Shown: positions 27,752 through 45,016 of the stretch, one piece after another
How positions within the stretch are numbered: the stretch's first letter is position 1
How the letters are laid out: the number at the start of each line of letters is the position of its first letter
From: Candidatus Eiseniibacteriota bacterium
GTDB lineage: Bacteria > Eisenbacteria > RBG-16-71-46 > DASYSL01
Assembly: GCA_031431875.1 (NCBI GenBank)
Contig: JANPEF010000106.1
Location: 32,001-96,000 of the forward strand
Direction of reading: 5' to 3'
Length of the DNA: 64,000 nt
The notes under the pieces: model-generated
What the model saw: the letters and a program-made list of their open reading frames with translations, nothing else
What the model was told of the DNA's origin: nothing
The model's database searches: none
Program-made: the position numbers and the translations under genes

Positions 27752-28575
27752 AGCGCGCCGCCGCGACCCGTCGGACGGCGCCGCGTCCCGCGCCGGTGAC
27801 CGACGTCGCGCTGTACGACGGCCTGTTCGAGCGGTGGATGGGCAAGCTCGCCGCCGACCTGCCCATGATCCTCGAGGTGGCGAAGGGCGCGAGGGGCCCC
27901 GTGCTCGAGCTGGGCGTGGGCGCCGGAAGGGTCGCGATCGAACTGGCGCGCCGCGGTCACCACGTCACCGGCGTCGACGATTCGAAGCCGATGCTGGCCG
28001 CACTTGCCCGCCGCCTCGCCGCCGAGCCACCCGTCGTGCGCGCCCGCGTCACCGCGCTGCGCCAGGACCTGCGGCGCCTCAGGGTGCCGCGTGGGAAGTT
28101 TCGCCTGGCCCTCCTGCCGTTCAACACGTTCTGCCACTTCGAGACGATCGCCGATCAGGACAAAGTGCTCGCCGGCGCGGCGGGCGCGCTCGCGCGCGGC
28201 GGCTGGCTGTGGCTCTCGGTGTTCCGCGTCGATCCGGCCCGCCCCACGGGTGTGCTGCGCGCCGAGCCGGGGCCGCTGTCAGGCGAGGCGCCGGGGCTGC
28301 CCGGTTCGCGCACCGAGGTGTTCTTCCAGCAGGCGTTCGAGCGCGCGGCGCAGGTGACCGAGGCGCGCTTCTGGCTCGACACGGTCGCGCCCGACGGACT
28401 GGTCCGCCGGCAGACCACGCAACTGCGCCTGCGCTGGTTCGAGCGCTACGAGTTGGAGCGCGCGCTCGCCGCGCACGGGTTCGTCGTGCGCCGGTTGTGG
28501 GGCGACTTCGACGGCGTCGACTTCGACGACACGAGCCCGCAGATCATCCTGCTCGCCCAGCGCGCGGCGCGTTGA
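27748..28575 (+). CDS. Class I SAM-dependent methyltransferase
   Basis: VLELGVGAGR motif I; GTGA coupling. Confidence 0.85.
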   Translation: MKRAAATRRTAPRPAPVTDVALYDGLFERWMGKLAADLPMILEVAKGARGPVLELGVGAGRVAIELARRGHHVTGVDDSKPMLAALARRLAAEPPVVRARVTALRQDLRRLRVPRGKFRLALLPFNTFCHFETIADQDKVLAGAAGALARGGWLWLSVFRVDPARPTGVLRAEPGPLSGEAPGLPGSRTEVFFQQAFERAAQVTEARFWLDTVAPDGLVRRQTTQLRLRWFERYELERALAAHGFVVRRLWGDFDGVDFDDTSPQIILLAQRAAR

Positions 28576-28582
28576 GCCCGCC

Positions 28583-29173
28583 GTGGCCGTCCTGTCCCGC
28601 CGCTTCTACGCCCGCCCGGCGCTCGCGGTGGCGGCCGACCTGATCGGCACCAGGCTGGTTCATCGCTCGCCGTTCGGCACGCTCGGCGGTGTGATCGTCG
28701 AGGTCGAGGCCTACGGCGGCGCCGAGGATGCGGCGAGCCACGCGAAGAACGGGCCCACACCACGCAACCGGAGCATGTTCGGTCCTCCCGGCCACGCCTA
28801 TGTCTACTTCATCTACGGGATGCACCATTGCCTGAACGTCGTCACCGGACGGGAGGGGGAGGGTGCGGCGGTTCTCCTCCGGGCGATCGCGCCGTCGCTC
28901 GGCGGGGCGCTGTGGCGTGGCCGGCGATCCGACCTCCCCGTCGGGCGCGAGGCCTCGGGTCCCGGCCGGCTCGCCCGGGCGCTCGGGCTGACCCGCGCGC
29001 ACGATGGGCTCGATCTCCTCGATTCCCCGCTGATCATCCGCCCGCGGCGGGGGGAGGAACCCCCGCTCTCGAGCGGCCCACGGATCGGGATTCGTCTCGC
29101 CCGGGAGATCCCTGGGCGGATCTGGTGGACCGGGCACCCGGCGGTCTCGCGAACCGTCTCGCGGACCGGTTGA
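28583..29173 (+). CDS. mpg: DNA-3-methyladenine glycosylase (AAG/MPG family)
   Basis: IVEVEAY, YVYFIYGMH, AVLLRA, GPGRL, PRIGI. Confidence 0.93.
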   Translation: MAVLSRRFYARPALAVAADLIGTRLVHRSPFGTLGGVIVEVEAYGGAEDAASHAKNGPTPRNRSMFGPPGHAYVYFIYGMHHCLNVVTGREGEGAAVLLRAIAPSLGGALWRGRRSDLPVGREASGPGRLARALGLTRAHDGLDLLDSPLIIRPRRGEEPPLSSGPRIGIRLAREIPGRIWWTGHPAVSRTVSRTG

Positions 29174-29198
29174 CAGCCGCCGCTTCCCGACCTAGGAT
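29170..29198 (+). promoter_or_regulatory. sigma70-type promoter
   Basis: TTGACA-N17-TAGGAT overlapping the mpg stop. Confidence 0.7.
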
Positions 29199-29230
29199 GC
29201 GCAGCGGTGCGCACTTGCGTGCCGACCGAG

Positions 29231-29274
29231 GCGTCCCCGGGTCTGCGACCCCGGCTCGACGCGTTTTTTGTTTT
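29231..29274 (+). terminator. Intrinsic terminator-like hairpin with U-tract
   Basis: GCGTC..CCGGGTC-TGC-GACCCCGG..GACGC followed by TTTTTTGTTTT. Confidence 0.6.
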
Positions 29275-29291
29275 CCCCAAGGAGTCCATGG

Positions 29292-30881
29292 ATGAATCGT
29301 GCCGTGTTCGCGTGCGCCGCGTACCTCGCGTCCGCCGCCGCCGCGATCCTGTGCGCCGCGCCGGCGGGGGCCCAGTTCCTCGCGCCCGCGCTGGAGAAGT
29401 CGGGCTTCGATCAGCGCTTGCGGCAACCGTCGCTGCGCCTCGCCACGCTCGGTCGCGCCACACTCGCGTTCGATGACGAGAACAACGAGATCAACCAGTG
29501 GGATTTCGGCGCCTCGACCGTCGGCCTGGTGAGCGATCGCAACGGGAACTCCGTCGACCTGTATTTTGACGCCGCCGGGACGTCGGCCGAGCGCACCGTC
29601 GGGGGGGTCCCGGGGGAAGTCGATCGCTATGACGGCTCGGTCTACGGCCTGAGTGCGGTGGCCCGCAACGGGTCGAAGTTCGCCTTCGGCCTCAGCCTTG
29701 GTTACCAGGGCCTCGGCACGGGCGTCCCGCTGCAGCCCGGCTTCTACCAGGATGAGAAGGCCGCGCTGCGCGAGGGAGTCGCCACGTTCAGCGGCCGGAT
29801 GGCCGGCGGCAAGCTGGGCTGGGGCGCCCGCCTGGGCTTCGGCAACGAGACCTACGACAGCCAGAGCCGGACCCGCGGCAACGAGGACGGCGAAGCGGTG
29901 CTCTCGGGCGGTGACGTCATCGAGTCCCCCTCCGCCTTCGACCTCACCGAGGCAACGGCCAAGCGCACGTTGTTCGGCCTCGGGCTCGGCTGGATGGCCG
30001 CCTCGTGGGGTGACGTCGCGATCAACTGGGACAACCTCAAGTCGTCGATCGACGGCAGCAACGAGACGCGCAAGCGGATCTACGAGATCGACGAGCCGCG
30101 CCGCTCCAACACGTTCTCGCTGACCACCACGCTCAAGCCGATCGACGGGCTCACCTTCGGCGGTGTCGTGGGGACCGGCGGTTTCAGCGTCGACGAGACC
30201 TATCGCTACACGCAGTCGAACGGGCAGGGGGCGACGCCGCTCGTCGCGCGAGGCGACCGTCTCGCTCGCGACGTCGAGGGCGACTTCCTGAAGACTCGCC
30301 TGGCGTTCACGCCGGGCGGCCTGCCGAATCTGCTCGTCGGTGCGGACTTCCGGGTGCTCTATCACAAGGATGCCATCACGGCGGCGACCACGCCCGGCAG
30401 CTTCAACGAATTCCTCGCCTCGCTGAACGGGACCGGCGTCAACCCGGGAATGCCCGTGCTCGACGAGAGCCAGGAGATCCGGCACTGGGATGCCGGTGTC
30501 GGCGTCGGCTACCTGATCGCGCCGCGCCTGCGGGTGGGGGCCGAGGGCCATCGCGCCAATGACGCGCGCGACGGCACGGGCGTGCATGCGCGGACGCGCA
30601 TCACCGACTTCCGCGGGGGTGTCGAGTACGGCGTCTCGAGCGAGTGGCAGGCGCGCATCGGCGGCTGGCATCGCGCGCTCGACCAGGACGTCTACACGGC
30701 GAACAACGAGGGGATCGGCGCCGCGCTGACGCTGGGTGCGGGCTATCGCCCCACGAACAGCAAGTACTCGCTCGACGGGGGCGTCGAGATCATGGATCGC
30801 ACGACGGACTACCCGGATCCGGGCGATGGAACCGGCTCGGGCTTCCGCTTCGTTCTCTACAATCGCTGGTCCTTCAACTGA
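29292..30881 (+). CDS. Outer-membrane beta-barrel protein of unknown function
   Basis: AAGGAG RBS; Ala-rich signal peptide; many amphipathic strands; C-terminal FVLYNRWSFN resembles a beta-signal. Confidence 0.75.
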   Translation: MNRAVFACAAYLASAAAAILCAAPAGAQFLAPALEKSGFDQRLRQPSLRLATLGRATLAFDDENNEINQWDFGASTVGLVSDRNGNSVDLYFDAAGTSAERTVGGVPGEVDRYDGSVYGLSAVARNGSKFAFGLSLGYQGLGTGVPLQPGFYQDEKAALREGVATFSGRMAGGKLGWGARLGFGNETYDSQSRTRGNEDGEAVLSGGDVIESPSAFDLTEATAKRTLFGLGLGWMAASWGDVAINWDNLKSSIDGSNETRKRIYEIDEPRRSNTFSLTTTLKPIDGLTFGGVVGTGGFSVDETYRYTQSNGQGATPLVARGDRLARDVEGDFLKTRLAFTPGGLPNLLVGADFRVLYHKDAITAATTPGSFNEFLASLNGTGVNPGMPVLDESQEIRHWDAGVGVGYLIAPRLRVGAEGHRANDARDGTGVHARTRITDFRGGVEYGVSSEWQARIGGWHRALDQDVYTANNEGIGAALTLGAGYRPTNSKYSLDGGVEIMDRTTDYPDPGDGTGSGFRFVLYNRWSFN

Positions 30882-30910
30882 CCGGTGGCGGGTTTCCGCA
30901 AAATTCGAGG

Positions 30911-31111
30911 TTGACAGTCGCCGCCCGGTCGGGCACTCTATGCCTCGACCGGGCGTCGGCCTCGCGAGGCCAGCGCCCCCAACCTGTGTTCGGGACGTGT
31001 CGCGAGGCGACGCGTCCCGTTTCATTTGGGACCCTTCGACGCTCTGAACACCCACTTCCCGTCCGGGAAGGGGCGCCTACGGAGGACCCGTCCGTGCAGC
31101 GCATGGATGGG
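30911..31111 (+). ncRNA. Candidate structured RNA or leader (unassigned)
   Basis: TTGACA at 30911; several nested stems with G-U pairs (see findings). Confidence 0.35.
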
Positions 31112-31134
31112 CCAAGAGCATGAGGACAAACGGG

Positions 31135-31164
31135 TTGACTCAATCCTTGCTTGCTCCCTATAGT
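31135..31164 (+). promoter_or_regulatory. sigma70-type promoter for TBDR operon
   Basis: TTGACT-N18-TATAGT, 70 nt before ATG 31234. Confidence 0.6.
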
Positions 31165-31233
31165 GGCGACGCCCTTCCCCGGGGCATCCCCTCGCCTGGT
31201 CGATCCGAACTCCCTCGGAGAGGTGCGCACACG

Positions 31234-33951
31234 ATGGTTCGCCAGTCTCTTCTCGGGCGCCTTCTGGGTGCCGGTCTTCTCGTCGTCGGGGCCGTCCTGG
31301 CCCTTTGGGTTGCCCCGGAGCCGGCCTTTGGCCAGGCCATGGGCACGGTCAAGGGCCGCGTCATGGAGGGCAAGCAGCCCGGCGCGTACGCCAACGTGGT
31401 CGTCCTCGGTTCCCGCCGCGGCGGCGCCACGGATGACGATGGCTACTTCACCATCCCCAACGTTCCGGTCGGCGCCTACACCCTCAAGGTGCAGCTCACC
31501 GGCTTCGAGCCCAAGTCGCTGGCGATCACGGTGAATGCCGGGGTCAACGACGTGGGCACGATCACCGTCGGCGGCTCGAAGGTGGTCAAGGAGATCGCGG
31601 AAGTCAGGGTCACCGCGGAGCGCATGATCGACACCAAGACCTCGTCCACCAAGCACACGGTGTCGGGCGAGTCGCTCAGTGACCTGCCGGTCGAGAACCT
31701 GCGCGAGGCGGTCGCGCTCAAGGCCGGCATCGTCGCCACCAACGGCGAGTTGCACGTGCGCGGCGGTCGCGGCGGCGAGATCAAGCAGACCATCGACGGG
31801 ATCGAAGTCTCCGATCCGTTGTTCGGCCGCAGCTCGTCGATCGCCAATCTGTCGGTCGCCGGCGCCGACGTCCTGTCGGGCGGCTTCGATGCCGAGTTCG
31901 GCAATGCCCTCTCCGGCGTGATCAACATCACCACCAAGGAGGGCGGCGACAAGTTCGGCGGCGACTTCCAGTGGCACACCGACCGCTACGGAGAGAACTC
32001 GAAGACGTTCAACAATTACGATCGCTTCACCATCGGCCTCGGCGGTCCCATGCCGATCCGGAACCTGACGTACTTCCTCACCTACGAGGGGGTGTGGTCC
32101 GACACCTACCTCGATGCCGGCCGGACGCGCAGCACGACGACGGTGCTCGATTTCCTCAAGTTCGGGGATCGCCAGTCGAACGCGATCAACACCAACGCCA
32201 AGCTGGCGTGGCGGCCGACCCAGACGAAGAAGCTGACGTTCGAGGCGATCAACAACCACGCGACGACCTCGCCGTACAACCACATGTGGAGCCGCAAGGG
32301 CTACGTGGCGGTGACCTACGACACGTCGAGCACCAGCACGGGCGGGCAGCAGCTCACCCCGCGCTACGGCAAGTGGTCGTTCTTCGAGGAAGACTCCACT
32401 TACCAGTACCAGAACCTCGCCGACAACGTGCCGACGACCGACAATCGCTTCCAGCAGCTCAAGTCGGTGTGGACGCACCAGCTCTCGGCCAAGGACATCT
32501 ACACGGTGCGCCTGTCGCGGTTCATCTTCGACACCGAACAGACGGTGCAGTCGAAGGAGCCGTGGGAGTACGACACGCAGTCGCCGCAGTACTGGTCGGG
32601 CAACCTCGACTTCGATCCCTTCTACGTCACGCACGGCGATTTCCCGCGCTACTCGAAGCAGCTGACGACGACGTGGACGGCGAAGGGCGACTACACGACC
32701 CAGCGCTGGAAGGGCCACACGGTCAAGGCCGGCGTCGAGGGCGTGTACAACGAGGTCCAGCTCCTGTCGATGCAGAACCCGAACCAGGAAGCGAACGGCC
32801 TGCCGGGCCTCAACCGCTCGGACTTCACGAACTACAATCCCGAGGGTTCGGCCTTCCTGCAGGATCGCTGGGAGTACGAAGGCCTGGTGCTCAACGCCGG
32901 CCTGCGCTACGACCTGTTCACGCCGGGCCCGCAGATTCCCGATGAAGAACTGCCGAACGGGCGCTACAAGAGCCAGATCTCGCCGCGTCTCGGGGTGGCC
33001 TACCCGATCTCGGATCGCGACGTGCTGTCGTTCCACTACGGTTGGACGTTCCAGACGCCGCAGCGCAACTTCGTGTTCGAGAACCGCGGCTCCGAGTCGA
33101 CCGTGGCCGTCCGCGGCAATCCGGACCTGCAGCCCGAGACCAACATCAGCTACCAGGCGGCGGTGCAGCACCTGTTCTCGAAGGACGTCTCCGGGCAGTT
33201 CGCCGTGTTCTTCAAGGACATCTTCGGGCTGATCTCGGTGCGCCAGGAAATCGATGCCGTGACCGGGCTCCAGGTGCCCGTCTACGTCAACCAGGATTAC
33301 GCGTCGGCGCGCGGCTTCGAGGCGTCGTTGACCAAGCGCTTCAGCCACAAGTTCTCGGCCGAGGTGAACTACACGTACTCGATCGCGACCGGCGTCGCCT
33401 CGGATCCGAACAACGGATTGCAGTTCGCCAACGGCAACCTGCTGTACCTGCCGATCGCCGAGCAGGCGCTCGACTGGGACCAGCGCCACACGCTGAATGC
33501 GAACCTGATCCTGCGCGACCCGGGCAAGTGGGGCGTCACCTTCCTGTGGACCTACGGATCGGGACTGCCGTACACGCCGACGTTCCGCAACGATCGCCGT
33601 CCGGACCCCACGTACAACAACACGCGTCGACTGCCCAGCCAGTCGACGCTGTCGCTCGTGGCCGACAAGTACTTCCGCATCTGGGGCCAGAACGTGACGT
33701 TCTTCGCCGATGCCCGCAACGTGCTCGACGCGGAGTCGATCATCAACCTGGCGCCCGACAACTCGCAGAATCCCTACATCAACCAGGTCGGGAACGACTA
33801 CGAGATCTACTACACCGAGACCGGTCGCGGCGGTGGCGCTTACCTCCGTGACACCAACGGCGACCGGGTCGAGGACTGGGTGCCGGTGAACGATCCCCGT
33901 GTCTACTCCGAGGGACGCAACGTCCGCCTCGGCGTGGGCGTGTCGTTCTGA
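31234..33951 (+). CDS. TonB-dependent receptor with N-terminal carboxypeptidase-regulatory-like domain
   Basis: Signal peptide; GAYANVVV/TDDDGYF; plug LHVRGGR and GGFDAEFGNALSGVINITTK; NAGLRYD, SPRLG, GNPDLQPE; terminal F. Confidence 0.93.
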   Translation: MVRQSLLGRLLGAGLLVVGAVLALWVAPEPAFGQAMGTVKGRVMEGKQPGAYANVVVLGSRRGGATDDDGYFTIPNVPVGAYTLKVQLTGFEPKSLAITVNAGVNDVGTITVGGSKVVKEIAEVRVTAERMIDTKTSSTKHTVSGESLSDLPVENLREAVALKAGIVATNGELHVRGGRGGEIKQTIDGIEVSDPLFGRSSSIANLSVAGADVLSGGFDAEFGNALSGVINITTKEGGDKFGGDFQWHTDRYGENSKTFNNYDRFTIGLGGPMPIRNLTYFLTYEGVWSDTYLDAGRTRSTTTVLDFLKFGDRQSNAINTNAKLAWRPTQTKKLTFEAINNHATTSPYNHMWSRKGYVAVTYDTSSTSTGGQQLTPRYGKWSFFEEDSTYQYQNLADNVPTTDNRFQQLKSVWTHQLSAKDIYTVRLSRFIFDTEQTVQSKEPWEYDTQSPQYWSGNLDFDPFYVTHGDFPRYSKQLTTTWTAKGDYTTQRWKGHTVKAGVEGVYNEVQLLSMQNPNQEANGLPGLNRSDFTNYNPEGSAFLQDRWEYEGLVLNAGLRYDLFTPGPQIPDEELPNGRYKSQISPRLGVAYPISDRDVLSFHYGWTFQTPQRNFVFENRGSESTVAVRGNPDLQPETNISYQAAVQHLFSKDVSGQFAVFFKDIFGLISVRQEIDAVTGLQVPVYVNQDYASARGFEASLTKRFSHKFSAEVNYTYSIATGVASDPNNGLQFANGNLLYLPIAEQALDWDQRHTLNANLILRDPGKWGVTFLWTYGSGLPYTPTFRNDRRPDPTYNNTRRLPSQSTLSLVADKYFRIWGQNVTFFADARNVLDAESIINLAPDNSQNPYINQVGNDYEIYYTETGRGGGAYLRDTNGDRVEDWVPVNDPRVYSEGRNVRLGVGVSF

Positions 33952-33982
33952 GCGGGGCGCCGACATGCCCAAGGAGCCATCG

Positions 33983-36742
33983 ATGATCCGCAGCGCCCCG
34001 ATGCGTCGTGGCCTCGCCTGCTTCGTGCTGGCGGGCCTCGTTCTGCCCTGGTCGACCCCGGCACTCGCCCGGATCTGGACCGACACGCCGATCGACGACG
34101 CGACGCTCCTGCCCGCGCCGGGCGCCGCCAGCGGCGGGTCCCCGTACAGCCTGCAGGCGGTGCCCGAGATCAATGGCGTGGGCCGCGTCTCGACCGCGGG
34201 CAACGTGTGGATGAAGACGACCAACATCGGCATCCTGGGCAACCCGTTCACGGCCCAGTCGCCCGATCCGTCGGCGCAGTGGCCGGGCCCGTCGGGCGTC
34301 GAGTACTTGTTCTTCATCGGCCTGTATGTCGCGGCAAAGAATCCCGAGGCAACCGATCCGGCCCTGGTGCGCCGCGTCAGCCACAACACCGAGTGGCGTC
34401 CGCCGACGCTCGCGCCCGAGGACCGGATCTACCAGTCCTACGACGGGCAGGTGGACGGCGGCCGCGCGGTCGACGACGACGGCGACCTCCAGATCGACGA
34501 GGAGTTCTTCAACGGCAAGGACGACGACTTCGACGGCCGCATCGACGAGGACTACGCCGCCATTTCCCAGCTCATGTACACCTGCGAACTCCGCGACGAC
34601 ACCGAGCAGGCCGAGAACAGCAACTTCGCCGAGAAGCACGTCGGCTTCGGCCTGCGGGTGCAGCAGACTTCGTTCTCCTTCGCCGTTCCCGGGGCGAACG
34701 ACTTCGCGGCGGCCGACTTCAAGGTCATCAACGATTCCGGGCACCAGCTCGACTCGGTGTTCGTCGGGTTCTTCGTCGAGCAGGATGTCGGCCCGACGCA
34801 GCTCGACCGCTACTTCTCCGATGACCTGCCGGACGCCCGCGTTCCGCAGGGGGACTTCCTCGAGATCATCGAGTCGAGCGATCCGCGCTTCGACACGGTT
34901 CTGTGCCGACAGGACACGATCAAGGTCCGCGGGTTCACCATGACCGACGACGATGGCGACATGGGCCGGACACCGGGGGGCTCGAGCTTCCTGCTGCTCG
35001 GCCACACCACGGACCCGACGGGCCAGAAGGCCCCTCGAACGGTCGGCTTCCGCATGTTCCGCGCCTACCTGCCGGGGACGCCGTACGTGCAGGGCGGGGC
35101 GCCTGCGGTCGACATCGAGCGCTACGGTGCCATGTCCTCGCTCAATTCCGAGGGCGCCTGTTGCATCGGGGTCGATCCGCTGACGGGCCTGCTCAACGAC
35201 GAGCGCGCCGAGGAGTCGACCAAGAGCGACTACTTCTCGCTCTGCTCCGTCGGGCCATTCCTCGACTGGGAAAACGGCGAATCGATCTCGATCCAGATCG
35301 CCCTGGCCGTCCAGCGCTGTGACTACACTCGACCGGCGGACGATCCGTCCCCGCCGCTCCCGAACGAATTGGACACGTACGGCGGCTACCGTCGCATTTC
35401 GGACAATCCCTCCGGAACGGCCTGGCCGAATCCCGAACGCTACAGTGCGATGATCGTGAACGCGATCGAGGCCCAGAAGACCTTCCGTGGAAAGTACCAG
35501 CGAGTCTCGCAGGGAGAGACGCCGGACCTCCGCGGTCGGGAGACCCCGTTTCTGGCCCCCCCGGGTCTGACGGAATCGCTCGCCGATTGCCGCGACGAGG
35601 AAGCGGGCCAGACCCGCGACGTGACGGACGACATCACGGTCTGGTTCGACTTCGATTGCAACTTCTGCACCGGCGTCCCGGGCTTCGAGCTCCGCGAGTG
35701 GCTCGCGGCTGCACCGCCGCCGAATCCGGGCCTGCGCCTCACCTCGCAGGACAGGAGGATCCTGCTCGAGTGGGACAACCTCAGCGAGGTCACGCCGGAT
35801 CCCTCGACGAACCTACTGGACTTCCATTCGTATCGCGTGTGGAAGGCCTCGAACTTCACCCGACCCGTGGGATCGTCCGGCCCGTCCGAGGATCTGTGGG
35901 CGCTCCTCGCCGAACTCTATCTCTATGACGAGCTGACGCCGCTGCGGGACTCCGTGGACTCGAACCAGGATGGCCGGCTCGACAGCCTGGTTGCTGCGAC
36001 CTATCCCGTGCTGCTCAATCGGCAGACCGGAGAGCGGATCGATCCCGCGGGCATCCAGCCCTGTGCCAACGGCCAGACGCTGATCGACGGAACGTGCGTC
36101 CAGTCCACCGGGGCCCCGGGAGACACCGCATACGTCTTCGGCGATCGCCTGTACCTCGCGGAGAACGGGGCCGAGCGCCGAGCGACGGGCTACAAGCAGG
36201 CGCTCTACCCGGCCGGGCGCTACCGGTACGTGGATCCGAACGTGCTCAACGGCTTCGTCTACTTCTACTCGGTGACAGGCAAGGACTCGACCGGCCAGCG
36301 AAGCCAGACCGGTGGTCGCGGCACCCTCGCCGAGCAGGAGGGGCGCCGCAGCGCGACGGAGCTGGACGGCGTCTATCCGCAGGTCGCGGCGGACTCGAAG
36401 CCGGGCGGAATCTACGTCGTGCCCAATCCGTACCGGGGCAGCTCGCAGTGGGATCTGACCCCGAGCGCCTCGGATCCGACCGGAACCAAGGTCGACTTCT
36501 ACAACATGCCGCAGGGGCGGTGGACGCTCAAGATCTTCACCATCTCGGGAGACCTGGTGGAAGAGATCACGAGCGAAGACACGCAGGTGAACGAGAAGCC
36601 GCAGAAAGAGAATGCTGAAGACGGTCAGGCGTCCTGGAACCTGATTTCGCGCAATGGCCAGGACGTGGTGAGCGGCATCTACATGTTCAGCGTCGAGTCG
36701 GACGCGGGAATGTCGCAGGGCAAGTTCGTCATCATCCGCTGA
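33983..36742 (+). CDS. Large secreted protein with Ca-binding motifs and T9SS-CTD-like C-terminal domain
   Basis: AAGGAG RBS; signal peptide; DDDGDLQIDEE/DDDFDGRIDED; FN3-like LEWDN; CTD VVPNPY...KIFTISGDLV...WNLISRNGQDVVSGIY...KFVIIR. Confidence 0.8.
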   Translation: MIRSAPMRRGLACFVLAGLVLPWSTPALARIWTDTPIDDATLLPAPGAASGGSPYSLQAVPEINGVGRVSTAGNVWMKTTNIGILGNPFTAQSPDPSAQWPGPSGVEYLFFIGLYVAAKNPEATDPALVRRVSHNTEWRPPTLAPEDRIYQSYDGQVDGGRAVDDDGDLQIDEEFFNGKDDDFDGRIDEDYAAISQLMYTCELRDDTEQAENSNFAEKHVGFGLRVQQTSFSFAVPGANDFAAADFKVINDSGHQLDSVFVGFFVEQDVGPTQLDRYFSDDLPDARVPQGDFLEIIESSDPRFDTVLCRQDTIKVRGFTMTDDDGDMGRTPGGSSFLLLGHTTDPTGQKAPRTVGFRMFRAYLPGTPYVQGGAPAVDIERYGAMSSLNSEGACCIGVDPLTGLLNDERAEESTKSDYFSLCSVGPFLDWENGESISIQIALAVQRCDYTRPADDPSPPLPNELDTYGGYRRISDNPSGTAWPNPERYSAMIVNAIEAQKTFRGKYQRVSQGETPDLRGRETPFLAPPGLTESLADCRDEEAGQTRDVTDDITVWFDFDCNFCTGVPGFELREWLAAAPPPNPGLRLTSQDRRILLEWDNLSEVTPDPSTNLLDFHSYRVWKASNFTRPVGSSGPSEDLWALLAELYLYDELTPLRDSVDSNQDGRLDSLVAATYPVLLNRQTGERIDPAGIQPCANGQTLIDGTCVQSTGAPGDTAYVFGDRLYLAENGAERRATGYKQALYPAGRYRYVDPNVLNGFVYFYSVTGKDSTGQRSQTGGRGTLAEQEGRRSATELDGVYPQVAADSKPGGIYVVPNPYRGSSQWDLTPSASDPTGTKVDFYNMPQGRWTLKIFTISGDLVEEITSEDTQVNEKPQKENAEDGQASWNLISRNGQDVVSGIYMFSVESDAGMSQGKFVIIR

Positions 36743-36794
36743 CGCGGAAGTCGGCGGAGCCTTCGACGCACCGCCCCACAGAGGAGGAGCCAGA

Positions 36795-37739
36795 GTGAAG
36801 CGGACCCTGATCGCGCTGACCGTGCTGAGCCTCGCGGCCGCGGATGCGCGCGCCGCCGAGATCTTCGAAAAGGTCGGCACGTTCGACGGCCAGTTCCTGA
36901 AGATCGGAATCGGCGCTCGCGCGGCAGGCATGGGCGGCGCCTTCGTCGCCATCGCCGACGACCCCACGGCGGTGTTCTGGAATCCGTCGGGGATCGCGCG
37001 CCTGAACGAGGAAGAGACCAACGTGCAGGTCAACCACCTGACGTGGCCGGCCGACGTGGCGGTCGACCAGGCGGTGCTCGCCTTCAAGATCGGCAAGCTC
37101 CCCGGCATCTGGGCGGTCAATGCCCGGTCGCTGACCATCGACGACCAGCCGGTGCGCGACTCGTTCCGGCCGGAGGGCACCGGCGTGTACTTCGATGCCG
37201 GCTACACGTCGTTCGGCGCCACCTACGCGCGTTCGTTCACGGACAAGTTCTCGGCCGGCGCGACCGTCAACCTGGTGCGCATGGGACTCGCCGAGTTCAA
37301 GCAGGAGACGATCACGTTCGACCTCGGGACCCTGTACGACGTCGGCGTCGCGGGCATGAAGATCGGTTTCGCCATCCAGAGCATCGGCGGCCAGGTCCAG
37401 TTCATCGATCGTGAGGCGCGGGTCCCGACCGTGTTTCGCGTCGGCACGTCGGCGGACCTCATCACCACCAGCACCAGCAAGCTGATCGGCTCGTTCGAGT
37501 TCTCGCACCCGCCCGACAACGCCGAGCGCGCGAACGTCGGCGCCGAGTACGCCTACAAGGACTTCCTGTTCCTGCGTTCGGGCATGAACCTCAACTACGA
37601 CACCGAGGGCTTCGCGGCCGGCGCCGGCGTGCGCTTCCCCATCTCTGCCCTCAAGACGAACGCAAACTTCGATTACGCATACACGGACATGAAGACGCTC
37701 GGTTCCGCGCACCGCTTCTCGCTCCGAGTCCGCTTCTAG
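36795..37739 (+). CDS. PorV/PorQ-family (UPF0164-like) outer-membrane barrel
   Basis: GAGGAG RBS; FLKIGIGARAAGMGGAFVAIADDPTAVFWNPSG signature; DYAY...HRFSLRVRF end. Confidence 0.87.
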   Translation: MKRTLIALTVLSLAAADARAAEIFEKVGTFDGQFLKIGIGARAAGMGGAFVAIADDPTAVFWNPSGIARLNEEETNVQVNHLTWPADVAVDQAVLAFKIGKLPGIWAVNARSLTIDDQPVRDSFRPEGTGVYFDAGYTSFGATYARSFTDKFSAGATVNLVRMGLAEFKQETITFDLGTLYDVGVAGMKIGFAIQSIGGQVQFIDREARVPTVFRVGTSADLITTSTSKLIGSFEFSHPPDNAERANVGAEYAYKDFLFLRSGMNLNYDTEGFAAGAGVRFPISALKTNANFDYAYTDMKTLGSAHRFSLRVRF

Positions 37740-37760
37740 GATCGGGCGACGCCTACGCGC

Positions 37761-39260
37761 CTGAACACGACCCTCGTCGCCGCCCTCCTCGCCCTCGTGG
37801 CGGGGACGGCGGGGGACGCCCCGGCCGGGATCGATCCCGATCGAGAGCGGCCCCTGCCCTGGCGGAGCGAGGGTCGTTTGCTGTTCATCACCGACATCGT
37901 GGCCTCGCCCGGGCACGCTGGCGACGGGCGCTCCCGGCTCGACGTCGCGCTGCGCATCCCCGGCGACCAGCTCCGCTACGTCGATCGCGGCGACTCGATC
38001 GTTGCCGACCTGCGGCTCACCGTCGAGTTCCGCACCCGTTTCGGCCAGAAGGAGCTGGGCGAGTCGCGCACGCTGCGCGTCACGGCCCCGCCACGCGCGC
38101 CGAGCGGCTATAGCCCCGGGCACCTGCTCGTCCAGACGTTCGCCGTCCCGCCGGGACAGCACCAGCTGGTCGTGAAGCTCGAGGACCTGCAGAAGAACAA
38201 GACCGGCCTCGCCTACGTCGGGCGCAGGGTCCCGGAGAAGGGCTCGGCCGAGGGCCTGGTCCGCATCCCCACGTACCCCGCCGATTCGCTGGCCCTGGGC
38301 ACGCCCATGCTCGCCTGGCCGGCTGCCGCGCTTGACAGCGCCGATACGCGCGGCGCGCGCTCGTTCCGGCGCACGCCGGGCGGCGCGCCCGTCCTGCCCG
38401 ATCCCGATCGCACCTACGGCCTGTACGCGCCGGTCGCGCGCGCCTACTTCGAGGTGCGGCCGGCGCGAGAGGCGATGGGCCCGGCGACGGTGGTCGCCCG
38501 CGTGCGCACGACCGAGGGGCGACTGCTGGCCATCGTCGATTCCGCCGTCGTCGACGAGCAGGAACCGTGGTCCGGGCGCTTCGGCTTCGACGTCTCGACG
38601 CTGCCGGCCGGCGCCTACGACCTCGAGGTCACGGTGGCGCAGGGCGCAGCCACCGCGCGGTCCATGAACCGCTTCAACGTCGCGTGGCGGCCCGAGTCGT
38701 GGGAGCGCGATCCGCGCGAGTTCCTCGAGGAGGCGCACTTCCTGCTCGACGATGCCGACCTCGAGGAGCGCTACGCCGAGTTCACCGCCGGCGAGCAGGA
38801 GGCCTACCTCGACCGCTACTGGCGGGACCGCGACCCGACGCCGCTGTCGGCGCAGAACGAGGAGCGCGACAAGTTCTACGACCGTGTGCGCTACGCCAAC
38901 GACCACTTCGGGCTCCAGGGCGTGGTCAAGGGCATGCTGTCGGACCGCGGGCGCATCTACGTGCGCTTCGGCGAGCCGGACGAGATCCGCCAGCAGGTCA
39001 TGCCCGTCGGCGGTGCCACCGTGCAGCAGGTGGCACGCGAGATCGCCGTCGTCGACGACGATCCCTCCGCGGTCCAGCTCCGCAAGCCGCTGTCGATCGG
39101 CACCGACGAGCGGCCGTTCGAGGTGTGGACCTACATCCGCGTCCTCGAATCCCAGCAGGAGCGCGTGCAGGGTGGCTCGCAGCGTCGCATGCAGCGCAAG
39201 TTCGTCTTCGTCGACGAGCAGGGCTACGGAAACTACACGCTGGGCTATTCGAGCGAGTGA
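37761..39260 (+). CDS. GWxTD-domain protein (probable CTG start; first GTG at 37797)
   Basis: YWRDRDPTP...NE...RVRYANDHF...GMLSDRGRIYVRFGEPDEI...EVWTY; signal-like NTTLVAALLALVAG lies upstream of the GTG. Confidence 0.82.
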   Translation: MNTTLVAALLALVAGTAGDAPAGIDPDRERPLPWRSEGRLLFITDIVASPGHAGDGRSRLDVALRIPGDQLRYVDRGDSIVADLRLTVEFRTRFGQKELGESRTLRVTAPPRAPSGYSPGHLLVQTFAVPPGQHQLVVKLEDLQKNKTGLAYVGRRVPEKGSAEGLVRIPTYPADSLALGTPMLAWPAAALDSADTRGARSFRRTPGGAPVLPDPDRTYGLYAPVARAYFEVRPAREAMGPATVVARVRTTEGRLLAIVDSAVVDEQEPWSGRFGFDVSTLPAGAYDLEVTVAQGAATARSMNRFNVAWRPESWERDPREFLEEAHFLLDDADLEERYAEFTAGEQEAYLDRYWRDRDPTPLSAQNEERDKFYDRVRYANDHFGLQGVVKGMLSDRGRIYVRFGEPDEIRQQVMPVGGATVQQVAREIAVVDDDPSAVQLRKPLSIGTDERPFEVWTYIRVLESQQERVQGGSQRRMQRKFVFVDEQGYGNYTLGYSSE

Positions 39261-39655
39261 TCGAGCCTCCCCGGCGGCGACGGCCGCACGAGTCCCGCTG
39301 AATGGCCCTCGACTTGTCACGGCTTTACGGGGAGCTATCTGTGGCTGTGGACGAACCGGACTCCCCACGGGGTCCGGTTGAGGCACGAAGTAGGTGACCT
39401 CGACGGACAGCCGCCTGTGCACGCGCACCTCATTCACCATCCGGTGGAGGACTCCAGCCACGGGCCGCGAGTGTGCCCTCCTTGCGTCTGCGGCGGTTGG
39501 GATCGAGTTGTATCGTGTACAATGCGTGGGTGTCACGCTTGGGGGTGGAGCTTGTCAGTAGCATAGGGCTTCGCTGTACGACCGGGAGGACCCACACTCG
39601 TCCCCACAATCGTTCCTAGCGCACGAACGTCGTTCCACTCGCGCACTAAAACAAA

Positions 39656-41021
39656 GGGGCTTCCGGGTTTGGTGTGGCCCGATTCATTGGCCGCGCCTGA
39701 CGCTGGCCGGGTAGAGATCGAGCCCACCGCAGTGGAAGAAGATCGCCTGGCGGAAGCGCTCCCGATTGCGGAAGCCGCATGAGCGCGCCTTCACCCGCTG
39801 GATCTTTGCGTTCATCGACTCCGAGCCGGCATTGGTGATGCGATGCACGAAGTAGTTCCGCACGTGATGCCAGTGGCGGCGAAGCATGCGTGCGACGCGC
39901 TTGATCGGCTCGAGCTTGCTCCGCATCGCAAGGAAGAGCCACGCCTTGAAGTTGCGCTCGGCGGCCCACGGTGCGCTCAGGTCGAAGATCTTCATCGCCA
40001 TCTCCTTGAGCCCCCAGGCCCGGCCCAGTCGCTCGACCTGGCGTCTCAGTCCCGTCAGCACGCACTTCTCCAGGTGGCTCAGCGATCCGGGATGCCGGAG
40101 CCAGTCGTACTTCGTGCCCCCGAGCGGCGAGAACCCCTCGGCGTGCAGCCGCCGGTGCTCGCTGCGGCGCACCTGATCGACCGCGTCGTTCAGGTACTTC
40201 GCGAGGTGGAACTTGTCGAACACGATCTTCGAGTCGGCGTCGGGCAGGTGCTCGAGCGTCGACTGGATGTAGGGACCCCACATGTCCATGGCGACACCCT
40301 CGATCATGTTGATCTGCGTCGGCGACAGCCCCTTCCAGAACGCATCCAGGCTCTCGCGCCTGCGGTCGTCGGCGACGTCGAGCACGATGCCGCGCTCGAG
40401 ATCGCTGACCACCGTGACATACTCGTGCCGCTTCTGGTACGCCGTCTCATCGATGCCCACATACCGCGGAGCCACCGCGTCGCGGCGAGCCCGGCCACGC
40501 TTGACGGCGCGACCGAGGATCCCGTCGGCTTCGTCCCACGAGATCCTGAGGTGCTTCGCCACCGCACTCACGCTCGCCTGCTTCAGCCAGTCGATGGCCA
40601 GCGCCTCGAACAGCGCAGTGAACTGCGAGCCCGGCTCCGCCCACGGCACCGTGAGCTGCCGGATCCCGTGCGTCGGGCAGTTCAGCCGCGGCACGCGCGC
40701 ATGCACGATGGTCCGAAACTGACAGGTGTCCAGGTGTCGCCAGCTCCGCTCCTGATGGTCGTGAATCGGAGCCGCTGAATGACACTCCGGGCAGACCCAG
40801 CGCACCTGCTTCGGCAGCGCCACCCAGACCTCGACTTCCCCGGCGCTCAGGTTCGTCTCAACGCGCTCCACGATCCACGGGCTGCTCAGTCCCAGCACGG
40901 CGGCATACAGGCTCTTGATCTCGCTCAGGCTCGTCCTCCCGGTGAAGGTCCGAGCCCCAGCCTATCAACCCGCTACGCCGCTCGCGTCGCCGATTTCACC
41001 CACACCAGAGCCGGAAGCCCC
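39656..41021 (-). mobile_element. ISL3-family insertion sequence, complete (1366 bp)
   Basis: IRs GGGGCTTCCGG(G/C)T(T/C)TGGTGTGG at both ends; 8-bp direct repeat AAAACAAA at 39648-39655 and 41022-41029. Confidence 0.93.
39684..40928 (-). CDS. ISL3 transposase (probable CTG start at 40928; GTG at 40898)
   Basis: CPEC/CPTH zinc finger, WRHLD, GIDE, AMDM, FDKFH, TNAGSESMN. Confidence 0.93.
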   Translation of the reverse strand: MSEIKSLYAAVLGLSSPWIVERVETNLSAGEVEVWVALPKQVRWVCPECHSAAPIHDHQERSWRHLDTCQFRTIVHARVPRLNCPTHGIRQLTVPWAEPGSQFTALFEALAIDWLKQASVSAVAKHLRISWDEADGILGRAVKRGRARRDAVAPRYVGIDETAYQKRHEYVTVVSDLERGIVLDVADDRRRESLDAFWKGLSPTQINMIEGVAMDMWGPYIQSTLEHLPDADSKIVFDKFHLAKYLNDAVDQVRRSEHRRLHAEGFSPLGGTKYDWLRHPGSLSHLEKCVLTGLRRQVERLGRAWGLKEMAMKIFDLSAPWAAERNFKAWLFLAMRSKLEPIKRVARMLRRHWHHVRNYFVHRITNAGSESMNAKIQRVKARSCGFRNRERFRQAIFFHCGGLDLYPASVRRGQ

Positions 41022-41126
41022 AAAACAAATAGCAAGGTCGCCGTCTGCCTGGAGGAAGAGAGTTGGCGCCACGCGCGCTGTGTAGTGTAGTCGTCGCCCA
41101 GGACTGGGGTGGAATGAATTCCAGAT

Positions 41127-42047
41127 GGCTCTTCCGGCTCTGGTGTCGGCCGATTCATTGGCCGCACCTGACGCCGGCCGGGTAGAGATCGAGCCCGCCG
41201 CAGTGGAAGAAGATCACGCGGCGGAGCCGCTCGCGATTGCGGAACCCGCGGGCGCGCCCCTTGAGCTGCTGGATCTTCGTGTTCATGGCCTCTGACCCGG
41301 CGTTGGTGATGCGATGCACGAAGTAGTTCCGGAGCTGGCCCCAGTGCTTTCGCAGCATGCGCGCCACGCGCTTGATCGGCTCGAGCTTGCTTCTCATCGC
41401 GCCGATCAGCCAGGTCTCGAAGTTGCGATCGGCGGCCCACGGCGCGGTGAGATCGAAGATCTTCATCGCCATCTCATTGAGCGCCCAGGCACGACCCAGG
41501 CGCCGGACGTGGCCCCGAAGCTCCGCCAGCGCGCATTTCTCCGCGTGAGTCAGCGTCCCGGGATGGCGCAGCCAGTCGTACTTCGTCCGCGCCAGCGACG
41601 AGTCGCCCTCGGCCAGGAGCCGCCGGTGCTCGCTCCTACGCACGCGATCGACGGCGTCGTTCAAGTGCTGGGCGACATGGAACTTGTCGAACACGATCTT
41701 CGACTCGGCGTCCGGCAGGTGCTCGAACGTCGAGTGGATGTAGGGGCCCCACATGTCCATCGCGACGGCCTCGACGTTTGCGATCTGGGACGGCGAGAGC
41801 TTCTGCCAGAACGCATCCAGACTCTCGATCCTGCGGTCGTCGGCGACGTCGAGCACGATGCCGCGCTCGAGATCACTCACCACGGTGACGTACTCGTGAC
41901 GCTTCTGGAACGCCGTCTCATCGATCCCCACGTAGCGCGGAGCCACGACATCCCGCCTCGCCAGACCGCGGCGAACGGCCCGGGCCAGGATTCCGTCCGC
42001 CTCGTCCCACGAGATCCGCAGGTGCTTCGCCACCGCGCTCACGCTCG
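41127..42047 (-). pseudogene. Second, diverged ISL3 copy, 5'-truncated (one IR, transposase C-terminal two-thirds, stop at 41155)
   Basis: GGCTCTTCCGGCTCTGGTGT IR at 41127; similarity to first transposase stops at SVSAVAKHL (~42047); no zinc finger or second IR. Confidence 0.88.
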
Positions 42048-42049
42048 GC

Positions 42050-42193
42050 TTCCAGCAGGAAGGGCCGTACCTCCTCGTCGCAGGGGAGTACATCGGGACG
42101 AGTGCCCGAGTTGTGGATCTGCGAACGGGGGAGATCCTGTTACGCGCACCACATGAGGCACGGTGGAGCGTGTGGGTTCCGTGGCCCAGGTGA
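42050..42193 (+). pseudogene. 3' remnant of a gene cut at the IS junction
   Basis: Frame reads FQQEGPYLLVAGEYIGTSARVVDLRTGEILLRAPHEARWSVWVPWPR*, beta-propeller-like, no start. Confidence 0.4.
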
Positions 42194-42607
42194 GGCCAAG
42201 GGCCGCGCTCGACGACTCTTCTCGCGCTCGCGCGTGAGGCGTGCGCAATCGGGGTTGCTTCCGGCCCTTCTTCCGCGTGCTCACCCCAACACTTCCCCCG
42301 TCGCAATTGCCGCAGCGGATGAGGCCGGTGTGGAAGCGCGCGCTTCCGACCCGGCCGTGGCGTGGAGCGACGGGGGCGAGACCGAGCGGCCGCGTGCATG
42401 GCACGATCGAGCGGTCCGCGAAGCGCAGGCGGTCGCAGCCTTCGCCATTGTCTGGCTAAGTTCTGGCTCCGGCCGGAGAAACTGCAAAGTCCTTGACAAG
42501 CGAGGCGAATATGGCAAAGCTAGTAGGTCCGAGAAAAGCGCGCGCCCTTCGCGACTCATGCGACGGGCACTTCCGGCCTTGACGCACGACCGAAGGGCCA
42601 TCTTGCC

Positions 42608-45016
42608 ATGCGGTTGCACGTGTGCCTCCCGAATCCTCATTTCATCCGCACCGTGCTCGTGGGGCCCTTGTCGGCTCTCCTCGGCTTTCTCATACAGCCG
42701 CCTACTGTTCAGTCCGGGGAGGCCTCGCTCGAATTCGCCGTCAGTACGCGAAGCCCAAGCGAGAACGGGCCCAAGATCGTGCTCGCAGACAATCGGCAGG
42801 TTGCCATGTGGTCGGTGAGCACTTCGCGTGTCCGGGTCGATTGGGCGGAATCCCTCGACGATGGGGCAAGCTGGCGAATCGGGGCAAAGCTCCCACTGCG
42901 GGACCCCGTCAGCCATGGCATCAATGGACTCCCGGCGCTATGCGGTACCGCGTCGGGCACCGGCTATGCGGCGGTGTTCTATATCGGAGAGGGCTTCCAG
43001 GAGACTCTGGCGATCTATCGAGGGGATCCCGCCGGCGATTCCCTGGTGTGGTCGGGTCCGACCTACGCCGTGCCGCTGACCCCTCAAGTCGTGGAGGCGA
43101 GGAACTACGACGCTCCCGACCTGCGCTGGAATTCGACCTCGGGCACGCTCTATCTCGCCTTTGCGCGCGTTGACGGACCGAGCTCGGAAAGCACGATCCA
43201 ATTTGTCCGCTCGACCGACGGCGGCGCCACCTGGAGCGCGCCGCTCTCCTTGAGCACGAGCGAGTGCAATGGGCCACGCCTGGCGATCGGCCCCGACGGC
43301 GAGTTCTACGTGGTCTGGAACGACCTGCGGCAGCAGAAGATCCTGGGACGGCGCTCCACCGATGACGGGCTCAGCTTCGGCAGCACCTTCGTTTGCGGCT
43401 CGATCGAGGACAACCGCGGCGCCGCTCCGCCCGGGTACGTCGAGAATACGCAGCGGATCTATCAGGTCGCATTTCCTGCGATCGACGTGGATCAGACGAC
43501 CGGCGTCACCCGCGGACGGGTCTACGTCGCCTGGCCCGAGCGCGCGAGCGGTACGGTGACGGGCACCTTCCGGGGCGAGTTCGAGTGGGAGCCCAACGGG
43601 AACCTCTCGACGGCGACGCCGATTGTCTTCGGAACCGAAGCCTCCGGGATCGCGAACTCCTCGGACTCCGCGCCCTTCGAGCTCGATTACGACGTCTTCA
43701 GCTTCGAGGGCGAGGCCGGAACGATCGTCTGGATCGACGGCCGAGTCACAAGTACCGCGCCCTTGAGCAAGAGTCTGGAATGGGTAAGCTACGAAGTCCT
43801 CTGCGGGGAGGACACGCTGCAGACCGTGCAGCTGGCCAGGGGCAGGTGGGGCGACGTGCGTGCGGACTCGGCGACGGCGAGCCGCGACAACCAGCCCGCC
43901 GTGTTCACCCTGCCGAGGAGCGGGACCTACTACATCCGGACGCTGACCGCGGGCGGGCAGTACTCCCTCTTCTACCGCTTCTCGCTCGTGACCTTGCTGC
44001 CGGATCCTTCGTCCGTGGCCCGCGACAGCCGCGACATCGTTCTCGTCAGCTCCCCGGATGGGGGAGTCACCTGGCAGAACAAGATCCGGGTGAATGACGA
44101 TCCGTCCCTCTATGACAACGCACTGCCCGCGGTCGCGGTGGACCGCTCCGGGGCGGTGCACGTGGCCTGGTATGGCCGTCGCGACGACCCCGTCTGCGGC
44201 TTCTTCGCCGACACGTATCTCTCGCGCATGGAACCCGGGGGCCAGTTCCTCGCGGCCCAGCGGCTGAGCACGACATCGAGCAACTGGCGGCGCACGACCC
44301 AGGTCTCGAACATCGGCGACGGGTTGACCCTGCTGGCGGGGACGGCGTCCCTGTACTGCCTGTGGACCGACTTCCGAGGCGCAACGACCGATATCTATGG
44401 AGCGAAGCTGGTCACCGACGGGCCCACGGAGGCCCGCTCCTTCCTCCAGGCCGAGCGCCTTCAGACCGGAGTTCGACTGACCTGGCGCTTCGCCGGGCAA
44501 GCCGATCCGGACCCTCTCGTCCACTGCCGGCCACACCGGGCAGTTGCAGGCTCGGAGGAGTTCGTGCCTCTCCTCGCGGAGCCCTTGTCGCTCGAGCGGG
44601 AGGCCACTCAGTGGGACGATCCGTCGGCGCTGCTCGACTCGAGCTATGACTACAAGCTCGAACTCTTTCGCGCCTCCGGTCATGCCGAGTGGAGCGAGAT
44701 CGTGACGATCGAGGCGGAACTTCGTCCCCCTTTGCTCTCCTGGATGTCGGTGGCGCCGAATCCCCTTCGCGGGCCCGTCGAGGCCGTGCTCGTCACCTCG
44801 AGGACCGGCGAAGGACGAGTCGACGTCTATGACGTCCGGGGGGTTCGCGTCGCGACTCTGCACCACGGCCGAGTGCCCGCGGGTCGGCTGACGCTCTCGT
44901 GGAACGGCCAAGGCGCCCAGGGTCGTGTTTCCGCGGGGATCTACTTCCTGCACGCTCAACTCGGCTCCGAGACTGCCACAGCAAAACTCCACCAGCTCGA
45001 CACCACGGCGCGGTAG
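42608..45016 (+). CDS. BNR/Asp-box (sialidase-like) propeller with inserted PPC-like domain, FN3-like domain and FlgD-Ig CTD
   Basis: SLDDGASW, STDGGATW, STDDGLSF, SPDGGVTW; EWEPNG...DYDVFSF...GTYYIR; APNP...VYDVRG...WNG...SAGIYFL. Confidence 0.8.
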   Translation: MRLHVCLPNPHFIRTVLVGPLSALLGFLIQPPTVQSGEASLEFAVSTRSPSENGPKIVLADNRQVAMWSVSTSRVRVDWAESLDDGASWRIGAKLPLRDPVSHGINGLPALCGTASGTGYAAVFYIGEGFQETLAIYRGDPAGDSLVWSGPTYAVPLTPQVVEARNYDAPDLRWNSTSGTLYLAFARVDGPSSESTIQFVRSTDGGATWSAPLSLSTSECNGPRLAIGPDGEFYVVWNDLRQQKILGRRSTDDGLSFGSTFVCGSIEDNRGAAPPGYVENTQRIYQVAFPAIDVDQTTGVTRGRVYVAWPERASGTVTGTFRGEFEWEPNGNLSTATPIVFGTEASGIANSSDSAPFELDYDVFSFEGEAGTIVWIDGRVTSTAPLSKSLEWVSYEVLCGEDTLQTVQLARGRWGDVRADSATASRDNQPAVFTLPRSGTYYIRTLTAGGQYSLFYRFSLVTLLPDPSSVARDSRDIVLVSSPDGGVTWQNKIRVNDDPSLYDNALPAVAVDRSGAVHVAWYGRRDDPVCGFFADTYLSRMEPGGQFLAAQRLSTTSSNWRRTTQVSNIGDGLTLLAGTASLYCLWTDFRGATTDIYGAKLVTDGPTEARSFLQAERLQTGVRLTWRFAGQADPDPLVHCRPHRAVAGSEEFVPLLAEPLSLEREATQWDDPSALLDSSYDYKLELFRASGHAEWSEIVTIEAELRPPLLSWMSVAPNPLRGPVEAVLVTSRTGEGRVDVYDVRGVRVATLHHGRVPAGRLTLSWNGQGAQGRVSAGIYFLHAQLGSETATAKLHQLDTTAR

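Follow-up and report, generated by a model that had tools for sequence, protein, structure and literature searches.

In the polysaccharide utilisation loci (PULs) of Bacteroidota, the SusC/SusD and RagA/RagB pairs combine a TonB-dependent receptor (TBDR) bearing a CarboxypepD_reg domain with a large surface partner encoded after it. Other pairings of a surface protein with a barrel come from secretion systems of type IX (T9SS). A carrier barrel docks on SprA, binds the C-terminal domain (CTD) of its cargo and needs energy to leave (PMC10994853). In the PorQ-PorZ and PorV-PorU pairs of the Porphyromonas gingivalis T9SS attachment complex, a PorV-family barrel holds a T9SS substrate with an uncleaved CTD, PorZ keeping its own while bound to PorQ (PMC10947112), and type B cargo, as in SprB-SprF and PG1035-PorP-PorE, has cognate barrels encoded downstream that serve as one-to-one anchors, orphans perhaps sharing a barrel (PMC12618676; PMC9143113). 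In the BamG-BamH pair of the Bacteroidota beta-barrel assembly machinery (BAM), a surface protein is held next to a larger barrel by one of the FadL family (PMC12611786). The present study concerns a locus with likenesses to these systems, located at positions 29,292 to 39,260 of a 64,000-nucleotide stretch of a Candidatus Eiseniibacteriota (Eisenbacteria) genome (GCA_031431875.1, contig JANPEF010000106.1, positions 32,001 to 96,000; hereafter the window). By analogy with SusC/SusD, our judgement is evenly balanced as to whether its secreted partner protein acts as the capture lid of the adjacent TBDR, exported through SprA and retained by a PorV-like barrel of its own, in the place that SusD would hold.

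The locus and its closest counterparts

The five genes of the locus are as follows.

29292..30881, + strand: g1, predicted outer-membrane beta-barrel of 529 aa, unnamed family, ending in F; linked, not core
31234..33951, + strand: g2, TBDR of 905 aa with signal peptide, CarboxypepD_reg N-domain, TonB-box-like EVRVTA, plug and barrel
33983..36742 (alternative start 33965), + strand: g3, secreted partner of 919 aa with a predicted beta-supersandwich carrying DxDxDG-type acidic loops, FN3-like sandwiches and a 7-stranded T9SS CTD
36795..37739, + strand: g4, dedicated PorV/PorQ-family barrel of 314 aa (NF033709, 184.8 bits), in its own clade with orthologues
37740..39260, + strand: g5, GWxTD protein predicted to have two tandem Ig-like sandwiches along with a helical GWxTD domain whose tail is alpha/beta; its start codon is uncertain

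The module is like SusC/SusD and RagA/RagB in its gene order and in the setting of its paralogues, whose neighbours include glycan enzymes, LacI and ABC genes. The SusD fold is tetratricopeptide-repeat-like, whereas g3 is predicted to be all-beta, has no match to the SusD family (PF07980), lacks a lipobox and ends in a T9SS tail; g2 has no match to the SusC/RagA subfamily (TIGR04056) at E 0.1, and the unit contains an additional PorV-family barrel. Since the unit matches neither the SusC nor the SusD family models, it is counted here as a variant of lid-assisted TonB uptake built from known parts.

With PorQ-PorZ the module shares a tail that best matches that of PorZ, but g4 and g3 lie under the PorQ, PorV and PorZ cut-offs, and g3 is paired with a TBDR and exists in numerous paralogous copies. 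The order, a cargo gene and then the gene of its barrel, recalls type B cargo; in contrast to that class, the CTD of g3 is predicted to be 7-stranded and type A-like, the barrel belongs to the PorV family and g5 has no OmpA-type PorE domain. BamG-BamH is a possible analogy for g1 or g4, by description alone, from which the locus differs in that BamH is a lipoprotein and no BAM gene was seen in it.

Conservation of the core locus

Homologues of g3 were present in 150 of 151 genomes of the phylum, including all 118 of high quality, and a GWxTD profile match was found in 149/151. Forty regions around g3 hits, from 30 genomes hand-chosen to span families, were compared, and 26 of them had the order TBDR-g3-PorV-GWxTD, mostly between prfB-pgm-mpg and pfk/gap. 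Because the same gene order recurs across families of the phylum, the linkage is not due to chance. Gene g1 accompanied 25 of these 26 four-gene loci (the remaining contig ends in the TBDR), adjoining the core in 17 and being separated from it by tldD/tldE-type genes in 8. Four genomes from outside Eisenbacteria, three titled Krumholzibacteriia and one Fibrobacteraceae, all keep TBDR-g3-PorV-GWxTD without g1; the Fibrobacteraceae-titled genome groups with the Krumholzibacteriia-titled ones in the PorV tree. In loci of this Krumholzibacteriia type, opp-type ABC genes precede the core and exbB-tonB comes directly after it; exbD was observed in 3/4. The original prediction, made from the sequence alone, had noted five co-directional genes for exported proteins and named a neighbourhood survey as a check: all five are present on the + strand in a conserved array, and the survey bears out the linkage across families, but g1, which is separable or absent and has its own promoter-like site, falls outside the minimal module.

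Further g3 copies were encountered in the survey. In L067, L072 and L088, a second copy lies inside or directly after the core locus, which suggests that a receptor has several interchangeable partners. A TBDR-g3 pair that is duplicated and lacks PorV (L061:4514-10097) and an orphan g3 (L060:7983-10667), from genomes of the same family, both adjoin purine-catabolism genes (allantoicase/OHCU decarboxylase), and other orphan g3-type proteins (L021:4984-7296, L024:5861-10305, L071, L093, L094) often adjoin large unnamed lipoprotein-like proteins of 620-840 aa.

Paralogous triads

Further TBDR-partner-PorV triads occur in the same genome on contigs C147 and C145. The C147 triad is surrounded by LacI, two PF10091 enzymes (which we take to be GH144 beta-1,2-glucanases), a GH94 protein and a sugar ABC importer, and its partner is homologous to g3 (hhalign probability 99.9 over 678 columns). 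A scan with this partner, in which 78 loci were kept of 317 confirmed stretches, recovered C147-type loci in records titled Eisenbacteria, Rhodothermales, Ignavibacteria, Chlorobiales, Krumholzibacteriia and others. They adjoin glucan enzymes, LacI and ABC genes, with the TBDR directly upstream in 64/68, PorV directly downstream in 65/66 and both in 52 of the 57 evaluable. Paralogues of g3 are 21-25% identical, and up to about 20 paralogous cassettes were found per genome, many beside glycan enzymes. Over 33 triad genomes, matches to the TBDR-subfamily profile and to the PorV-family profile (PorV_fam) rose together (rho 0.91), these counts being matches rather than copies, from genomes that were selected for a triad and include non-independent kin. 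Mantel correlations among 16 triads were 0.53-0.64, which speaks for co-inheritance, not contact.

Contig C75 carries a variant order, TBDR-PorV-NHL protein-partner. A second variant (C75:48895-56259, L181, L184-L190 and L192) comprises partner-CTD protein-lipoprotein-TBDR-PorV-NHL-type protein; the C75-type variant, whose order varies, is common to this genome, Ignavibacteria-type genomes and one Krumholzibacteriia genome.

The partner protein and its tail

The partner g3 has no Pfam family, as is true of the whole g3 family of 774 representatives (at 50% identity, E up to 1e-30), and no solved structure was found for it by sequence. Its AlphaFold model is confident (pLDDT 89, pTM 0.90) and places a predicted beta-supersandwich at residues ~33-417, followed by FN3-like sandwiches and the 7-stranded CTD (mature residues 782-888). 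The modelled supersandwich most resembles the N-domains of glucoamylase (Z 18.6, root-mean-square deviation 3.1, 249 aligned), dextran dextrinase (Z 18.4) and laminaribiose phosphorylase (Z 18.3), then mutarotases (Z 13.0, deviation 4.3, 217 aligned); copper amine oxidases are among the Foldseek matches, and an ESM Atlas search with the N-domain returned unnamed clusters only. D176, H190 and E491 are invariant, and the invariant acidic DxDxDG-type loops, as read from the sequence, suggest calcium binding. An assignment as a GH15/GH65/GH94 hydrolase was rejected, the model having six short helices only in place of an (alpha/alpha)6 barrel and the alignments covering mainly N-domains.

The tail of g3 gave its best NCBIfam CTD match to PorZ, limited to the tail and under the cut-off (22 versus 260 bits, E 4.3e-5), and scored 14.7 against a cut-off of 23 bits on the type A model TIGR04183 (E 0.023). 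A signal peptide, a predicted 7-stranded CTD and a Lys near the end (GKFVIIR) accord with type A cargo, whereas type B cargo was rejected, there being no TIGR04131 match, a PorV-family neighbouring barrel and a predicted type A-like CTD. Among the 164 proteins with a CTD counted in the genome, 7 matched a g3-CTD profile at 53-189 bits and the other 157 at 25 bits or less; of the 7, 4 lie in TBDR/PorV loci. Conservation along g3 is highest in the CTD (mean column majority 0.71 versus 0.55 for the N-domain); in the glucan-type partner family the values are 0.77 and 0.75. Support from the PorZ-tail model is modest, because in addition to 3/7 g3-type proteins it matches PorU, a possible PorZ and 7 ordinary CTD proteins.

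The barrel, receptor, GWxTD protein and g1

Membership of g4 in the PorV/PorQ family is clear (NF033709, 184.8 bits against a cut-off of 90), and it lies under the equivalog cut-offs for PorQ (74.5 versus 220) and PorV (NF033710, 66 versus 250). In a quick version of the PorV-family tree, g4 groups with its orthologues (SH-aLRT 95), apart from glucan-type, C75-type, PorU-linked and FadL-like barrels. Two other identities were discarded: a canonical PorV shuttle, given the 66 versus 250 bits and the porU-linked copy elsewhere (contig C58, 136 bits, outside the g4 clade), and a FadL transporter, PF03349 scoring 25.1 under a cut-off of 29.7 and the tree keeping g4 from the FadL-like protein of the genome, which sits on a long branch. 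The dedicated PorV-like barrel of the original prediction is thus retained as a clade of its own within the PorV family, separate from PorU-linked PorV and from FadL, and its non-lipoprotein CTD partner likewise holds, with a distinct, highly conserved CTD and a lipobox-like motif in just 2/45 homologues, both on uncertain starts; the CTD is predicted to have a 7-stranded type A-like fold, not that of type B cargo, which the prediction had cited among its precedents.

The TBDR g2 has the barrel (PF00593, 97.9 bits), a plug just below its cut-off (22.1 versus 23.9), the CarboxypepD_reg domain and the motif EVRVTA, read from the sequence, which we take to be TonB-box-like. It is far under the cut-off of every named NCBIfam TBDR subfamily, and two TBDR paralogues of the genome reach 55.5 and 60.1 bits on TIGR04056, against a cut-off of 368.

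The GWxTD protein g5 matches TIGR04514 (73 bits, cut-off 28) and PF20094 (32.1 versus 26.9 bits), its motif reading FWRDRD-like. It is predicted to consist of two Ig-like sandwiches and a helical and alpha/beta GWxTD region, the tail of which may be BamE-like. Fold searches gave generic Ig-like domain matches only and barely covered the GWxTD domain, comparison with solved structures by sequence gave one chance-level match, and no peptidoglycan-binding domain was found. Most genomes of the phylum have two GWxTD matches; the second gene of this genome, on contig C145 (L017:5304-16581), has NlpC/P60, a PopA-like barrel and a further TBDR-partner-PorV triad downstream of it.

Gene g1 has no Pfam family, and of the 32 proteins obtained in a search for its homologues none bears a functional name. 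With a weak NF033709 match in 6/17 orthologues, weak FadL/TodX/OmpA matches at the C-terminus and a profile probability of 28.6 against PorV, it is predicted from sequence to be a barrel distantly resembling the FadL/PorV group.

Secretion context

The genome, 98% complete, encodes SprA (C25:3617-10003; 440.7 bits summed, cut-off 200) and a PorU-PorV pair (C58:12776-18289; PorU 552, cut-off 420). Downstream of porU-porV and two DUF5683 genes on C58 lies a 1147-aa protein ending in F (L020:12599-16042) with a weak SprA-like stretch, a candidate T9SS component. GldM was found neither in this genome nor in 101 genomes of the phylum or the 33 triad genomes, whereas the same search was positive in 14/61 genomes of another phylum sample. 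GldK and GldL gave sub-cut-off matches only; searches of the genome for GldN and for PorP/SprF (PF11751) were empty, and their positive controls did not respond either. Very divergent Gld homologues would be compatible with these negatives. SprA was found in 60/61 genomes of the phylum and 31/33 triad genomes. Of the 14 genomes positive for GldM, 13 gave no match to the g3 family and the remaining one a weak tail match, and GldM-positive genomes had 1-5 PorV_fam matches compared with 5-20 in triad genomes. SprA with no detectable GldM is thus a pattern of 101 Eisenbacteria and 33 other genomes of the Fibrobacteres-Chlorobi-Bacteroidetes (FCB) group, with GldL and GldK also undetected above cut-off in this genome. 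Reportedly, sprA without gld genes has been noted in Rhodothermus and Ignavibacterium, and the pattern may already be in print.

A search for SusD (PF07980) gave no match in the genome, with a responding positive control, so that its absence, noted originally for the window, extends by this search to the genome; among the 33 triad genomes it was not found in 21. SprA and PorU, noted originally as missing from the window, are encoded elsewhere in the genome, PorU together with a PorV, and for this reason the module is not a stand-alone minimal T9SS.

Transcription and flanking sequences

Upstream of the core, the following elements were recognised.

29170..29198, + strand: promoter-like site (sigma70-like) of g1, TTGACA-17-TAGGAT, 10/12 matches (2 sites versus 0.7 in shuffles)
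30911..31026, + strand: TTGACA site, then a two-hairpin element with a terminator-like stem; candidate small RNA or leader
31135..31164, + strand: sigma70-like promoter of the TBDR-partner-PorV-GWxTD unit; motif also in relatives L058 and L059

The TBDR most likely starts at ATG 31234, correcting 31120, because the ribosome-binding site and the TTGAC-N17/18-TATAGT promoter ahead of it recur in two relatives. The gap of ~350 nt between g1 and the TBDR contains a terminator-like hairpin (30991-31019) and this new promoter; together with the promoter-like site of g1 itself, they make a single five-gene operon unlikely, and g1 is probably a separate transcription unit, as judged from these motifs. 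The g2-g3 junction is 13-31 nt, and the g5 frame is open from 37740, a start at GTG 37797 cutting a hydrophobic segment. The 30911-31026 element (z -5.4) has similar counterparts in two same-family genomes and, in 8 more distant ones, only a GGGCG core after the TTGAC site; its consensus fold over 11 genomes had no covariation or compensatory pairs, and there was no Rfam match in window positions 28000-43000, the element included. Short metatranscriptome contigs from two runs cover parts of all five genes, a coverage that cannot show transcription or operon structure.

Downstream of g5, the window contains a pair of ISL3 transposase genes, of which the second seems to be frameshifted, together with two genes for CTD cargo, a BNR/PPC protein and a kelch/galactose-oxidase-like protein (39684-42400 and 42608-49240). 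This insert separates the GWxTD gene from pfkA, to which the relatives run straight on.

Discussion

We propose a lid role for g3 because its position, fold and PUL-like paralogues suggest substrate capture. All five proteins would be exported by Sec; g4 would dock on SprA, as proposed for PorV and PorQ, and collect g3 by its CTD. The CTD would stay uncleaved, as in PorZ-PorQ, and with its CTD retained g3 would have in g4 a one-to-one anchor rather than a recycling shuttle. The supersandwich would then bind a polymeric or oligomeric nutrient and present it to the TBDR, which would import it with TonB-ExbBD energy, while the GWxTD protein would be a periplasmic accessory of the core copy. We infer physical contact among the proteins of the module; a complex prediction with the TBDR barrel (mature 253-872) and the g3 supersandwich (38-417) scored 0.00, which counts neither for nor against it, with both chains trimmed and controls not folded. 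As to the substrate, the fold hints at glycans, and opp-type ABC genes upstream in 5/5 non-Eisenbacteria core-type loci and tldD/E genes in 8/26 Eisenbacteria loci give a weak hint of a peptide for the core copy. Opp-type importers may also carry glucans.

Several observations weigh against a capture lid. Retention in 150/151 genomes is unusual for a substrate-specific uptake locus, and the copy in the window has housekeeping genes around it and no glycan enzyme, transporter or regulator nearby. Orphan copies make up 12 of the 40 g3 regions, a TBDR-g3 pair without PorV another 2, and SusD coexists with triads in 12/33 genomes. As regards the tail, 3 of the 7 g3-type CTD proteins of the genome lie outside any TBDR/PorV locus, the PorZ-tail model extends to ordinary cargo, the conservation of the CTD stands without a comparison to such cargo, and both the CTD subtype and the co-divergence could result from shared ancestry or linkage alone.

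Since the supersandwich also occurs in mutarotases, lyases and amine oxidases, g3 could instead be an epimerase-, lyase- or oxidase-like surface enzyme on the PorV-like barrel, making the product that the TBDR imports. This is unlikely, though it carries some weight: the fold alone is catalytic in mutarotases, copper amine oxidases appear in the Foldseek list, D176, H190 and E491 are invariant and orphan copies exist. The best fold matches are nevertheless non-catalytic N-domains of GH15/GH94-type enzymes whose catalytic barrel is missing here, the glucan loci already have hydrolases of their own, and 21-25% identity between paralogues fits a variable binding module. Orphan copies, the acidic DxDxDG loops and the FN3-like domains would equally suit an adhesin or scaffold on a private PorV-like barrel, with a PorE-like GWxTD protein and a TBDR that is co-regulated and makes no contact; for type B cargo, moreover, the cargo-then-barrel order and one-to-one anchoring are documented (PMC12618676; PMC9143113). 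That possibility is slightly fainter, as the TBDR-g3 connection is the tightest in the module (13-31 nt here, 64/68 glucan-type loci and the two loci without PorV) and g5 has no detectable peptidoglycan-binding domain.

The near-universal core copy among housekeeping genes could also be envelope or secretion machinery, a TonB-coupled source of energy or of aid in assembly for a T9SS with SprA (60/61 and 31/33 genomes) and without the GldKLMN motor (GldM 0/101 and 0/33, with the search positive elsewhere in 14/61). Of 14 GldM-positive genomes, 13 gave no g3-family match, and energy is described as required to pull the carrier-cargo complex off SprA (PMC10994853). We consider this improbable: the cassettes reach about 20 in a genome and many of them adjoin glycan enzymes, which points to uptake; the TBDR is ordinary in its plug and its TonB-box-like motif; and the anti-correlation with GldM tracks lineage. 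Ignavibacteria- and Rhodothermia-titled genomes are also without GldM, yet their best TBDR matches are much weaker (E 1e-57 to 1e-120), and none of the 14 loci retrieved from them showed a GWxTD gene. Very improbable is mere co-inheritance of proteins with separate jobs, PorV being a general spare shuttle. The housekeeping synteny around the locus is conserved too and g1 is separable or absent, but independent paralogues of the triad occur in different settings, within one genome and across phyla, and the number of PorV matches follows that of TBDR matches.

No description of the cassette was found in the full-text literature searched, which mostly excludes subscription journals and was covered without supplements; within it, 'GWxTD' occurred in no paper, nor did Eisenbacteria together with type IX secretion. 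The operon given as SusC-SusD-SusE in the genome paper of M. roseus, Mros0761-0759 (PMC3534657), could be such a triad named by position. PUL prediction starts from susCD pairs (PMC5753385), and triad loci would for this reason be missed or mislabelled in lineages with 5-20 PorV-family copies.

If g3 is a lid, a general substitute for SusD has been made from parts of the T9SS; this would account for the multiplication of PorV paralogues, and a large family that has no Pfam entry would gain a function. Somewhat more tentatively, at just under even confidence, we suggest that FCB lineages with SprA and without GldKLMN (Eisenbacteria, Krumholzibacteriota, Ignavibacteria and Rhodothermia) use a second class of lid-assisted TonB importers, in which every receptor is served by a T9SS-exported capture protein of its own, tethered to a private PorV barrel through a special tail that stays uncleaved; the GWxTD-linked copy present across the phylum may be ancestral and might couple TonB energy to the release of cargo from SprA. 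With SprA, PorU and 164 CTD proteins in a genome without detectable GldM, the energy source of T9SS export becomes a concrete, testable question in these phyla.

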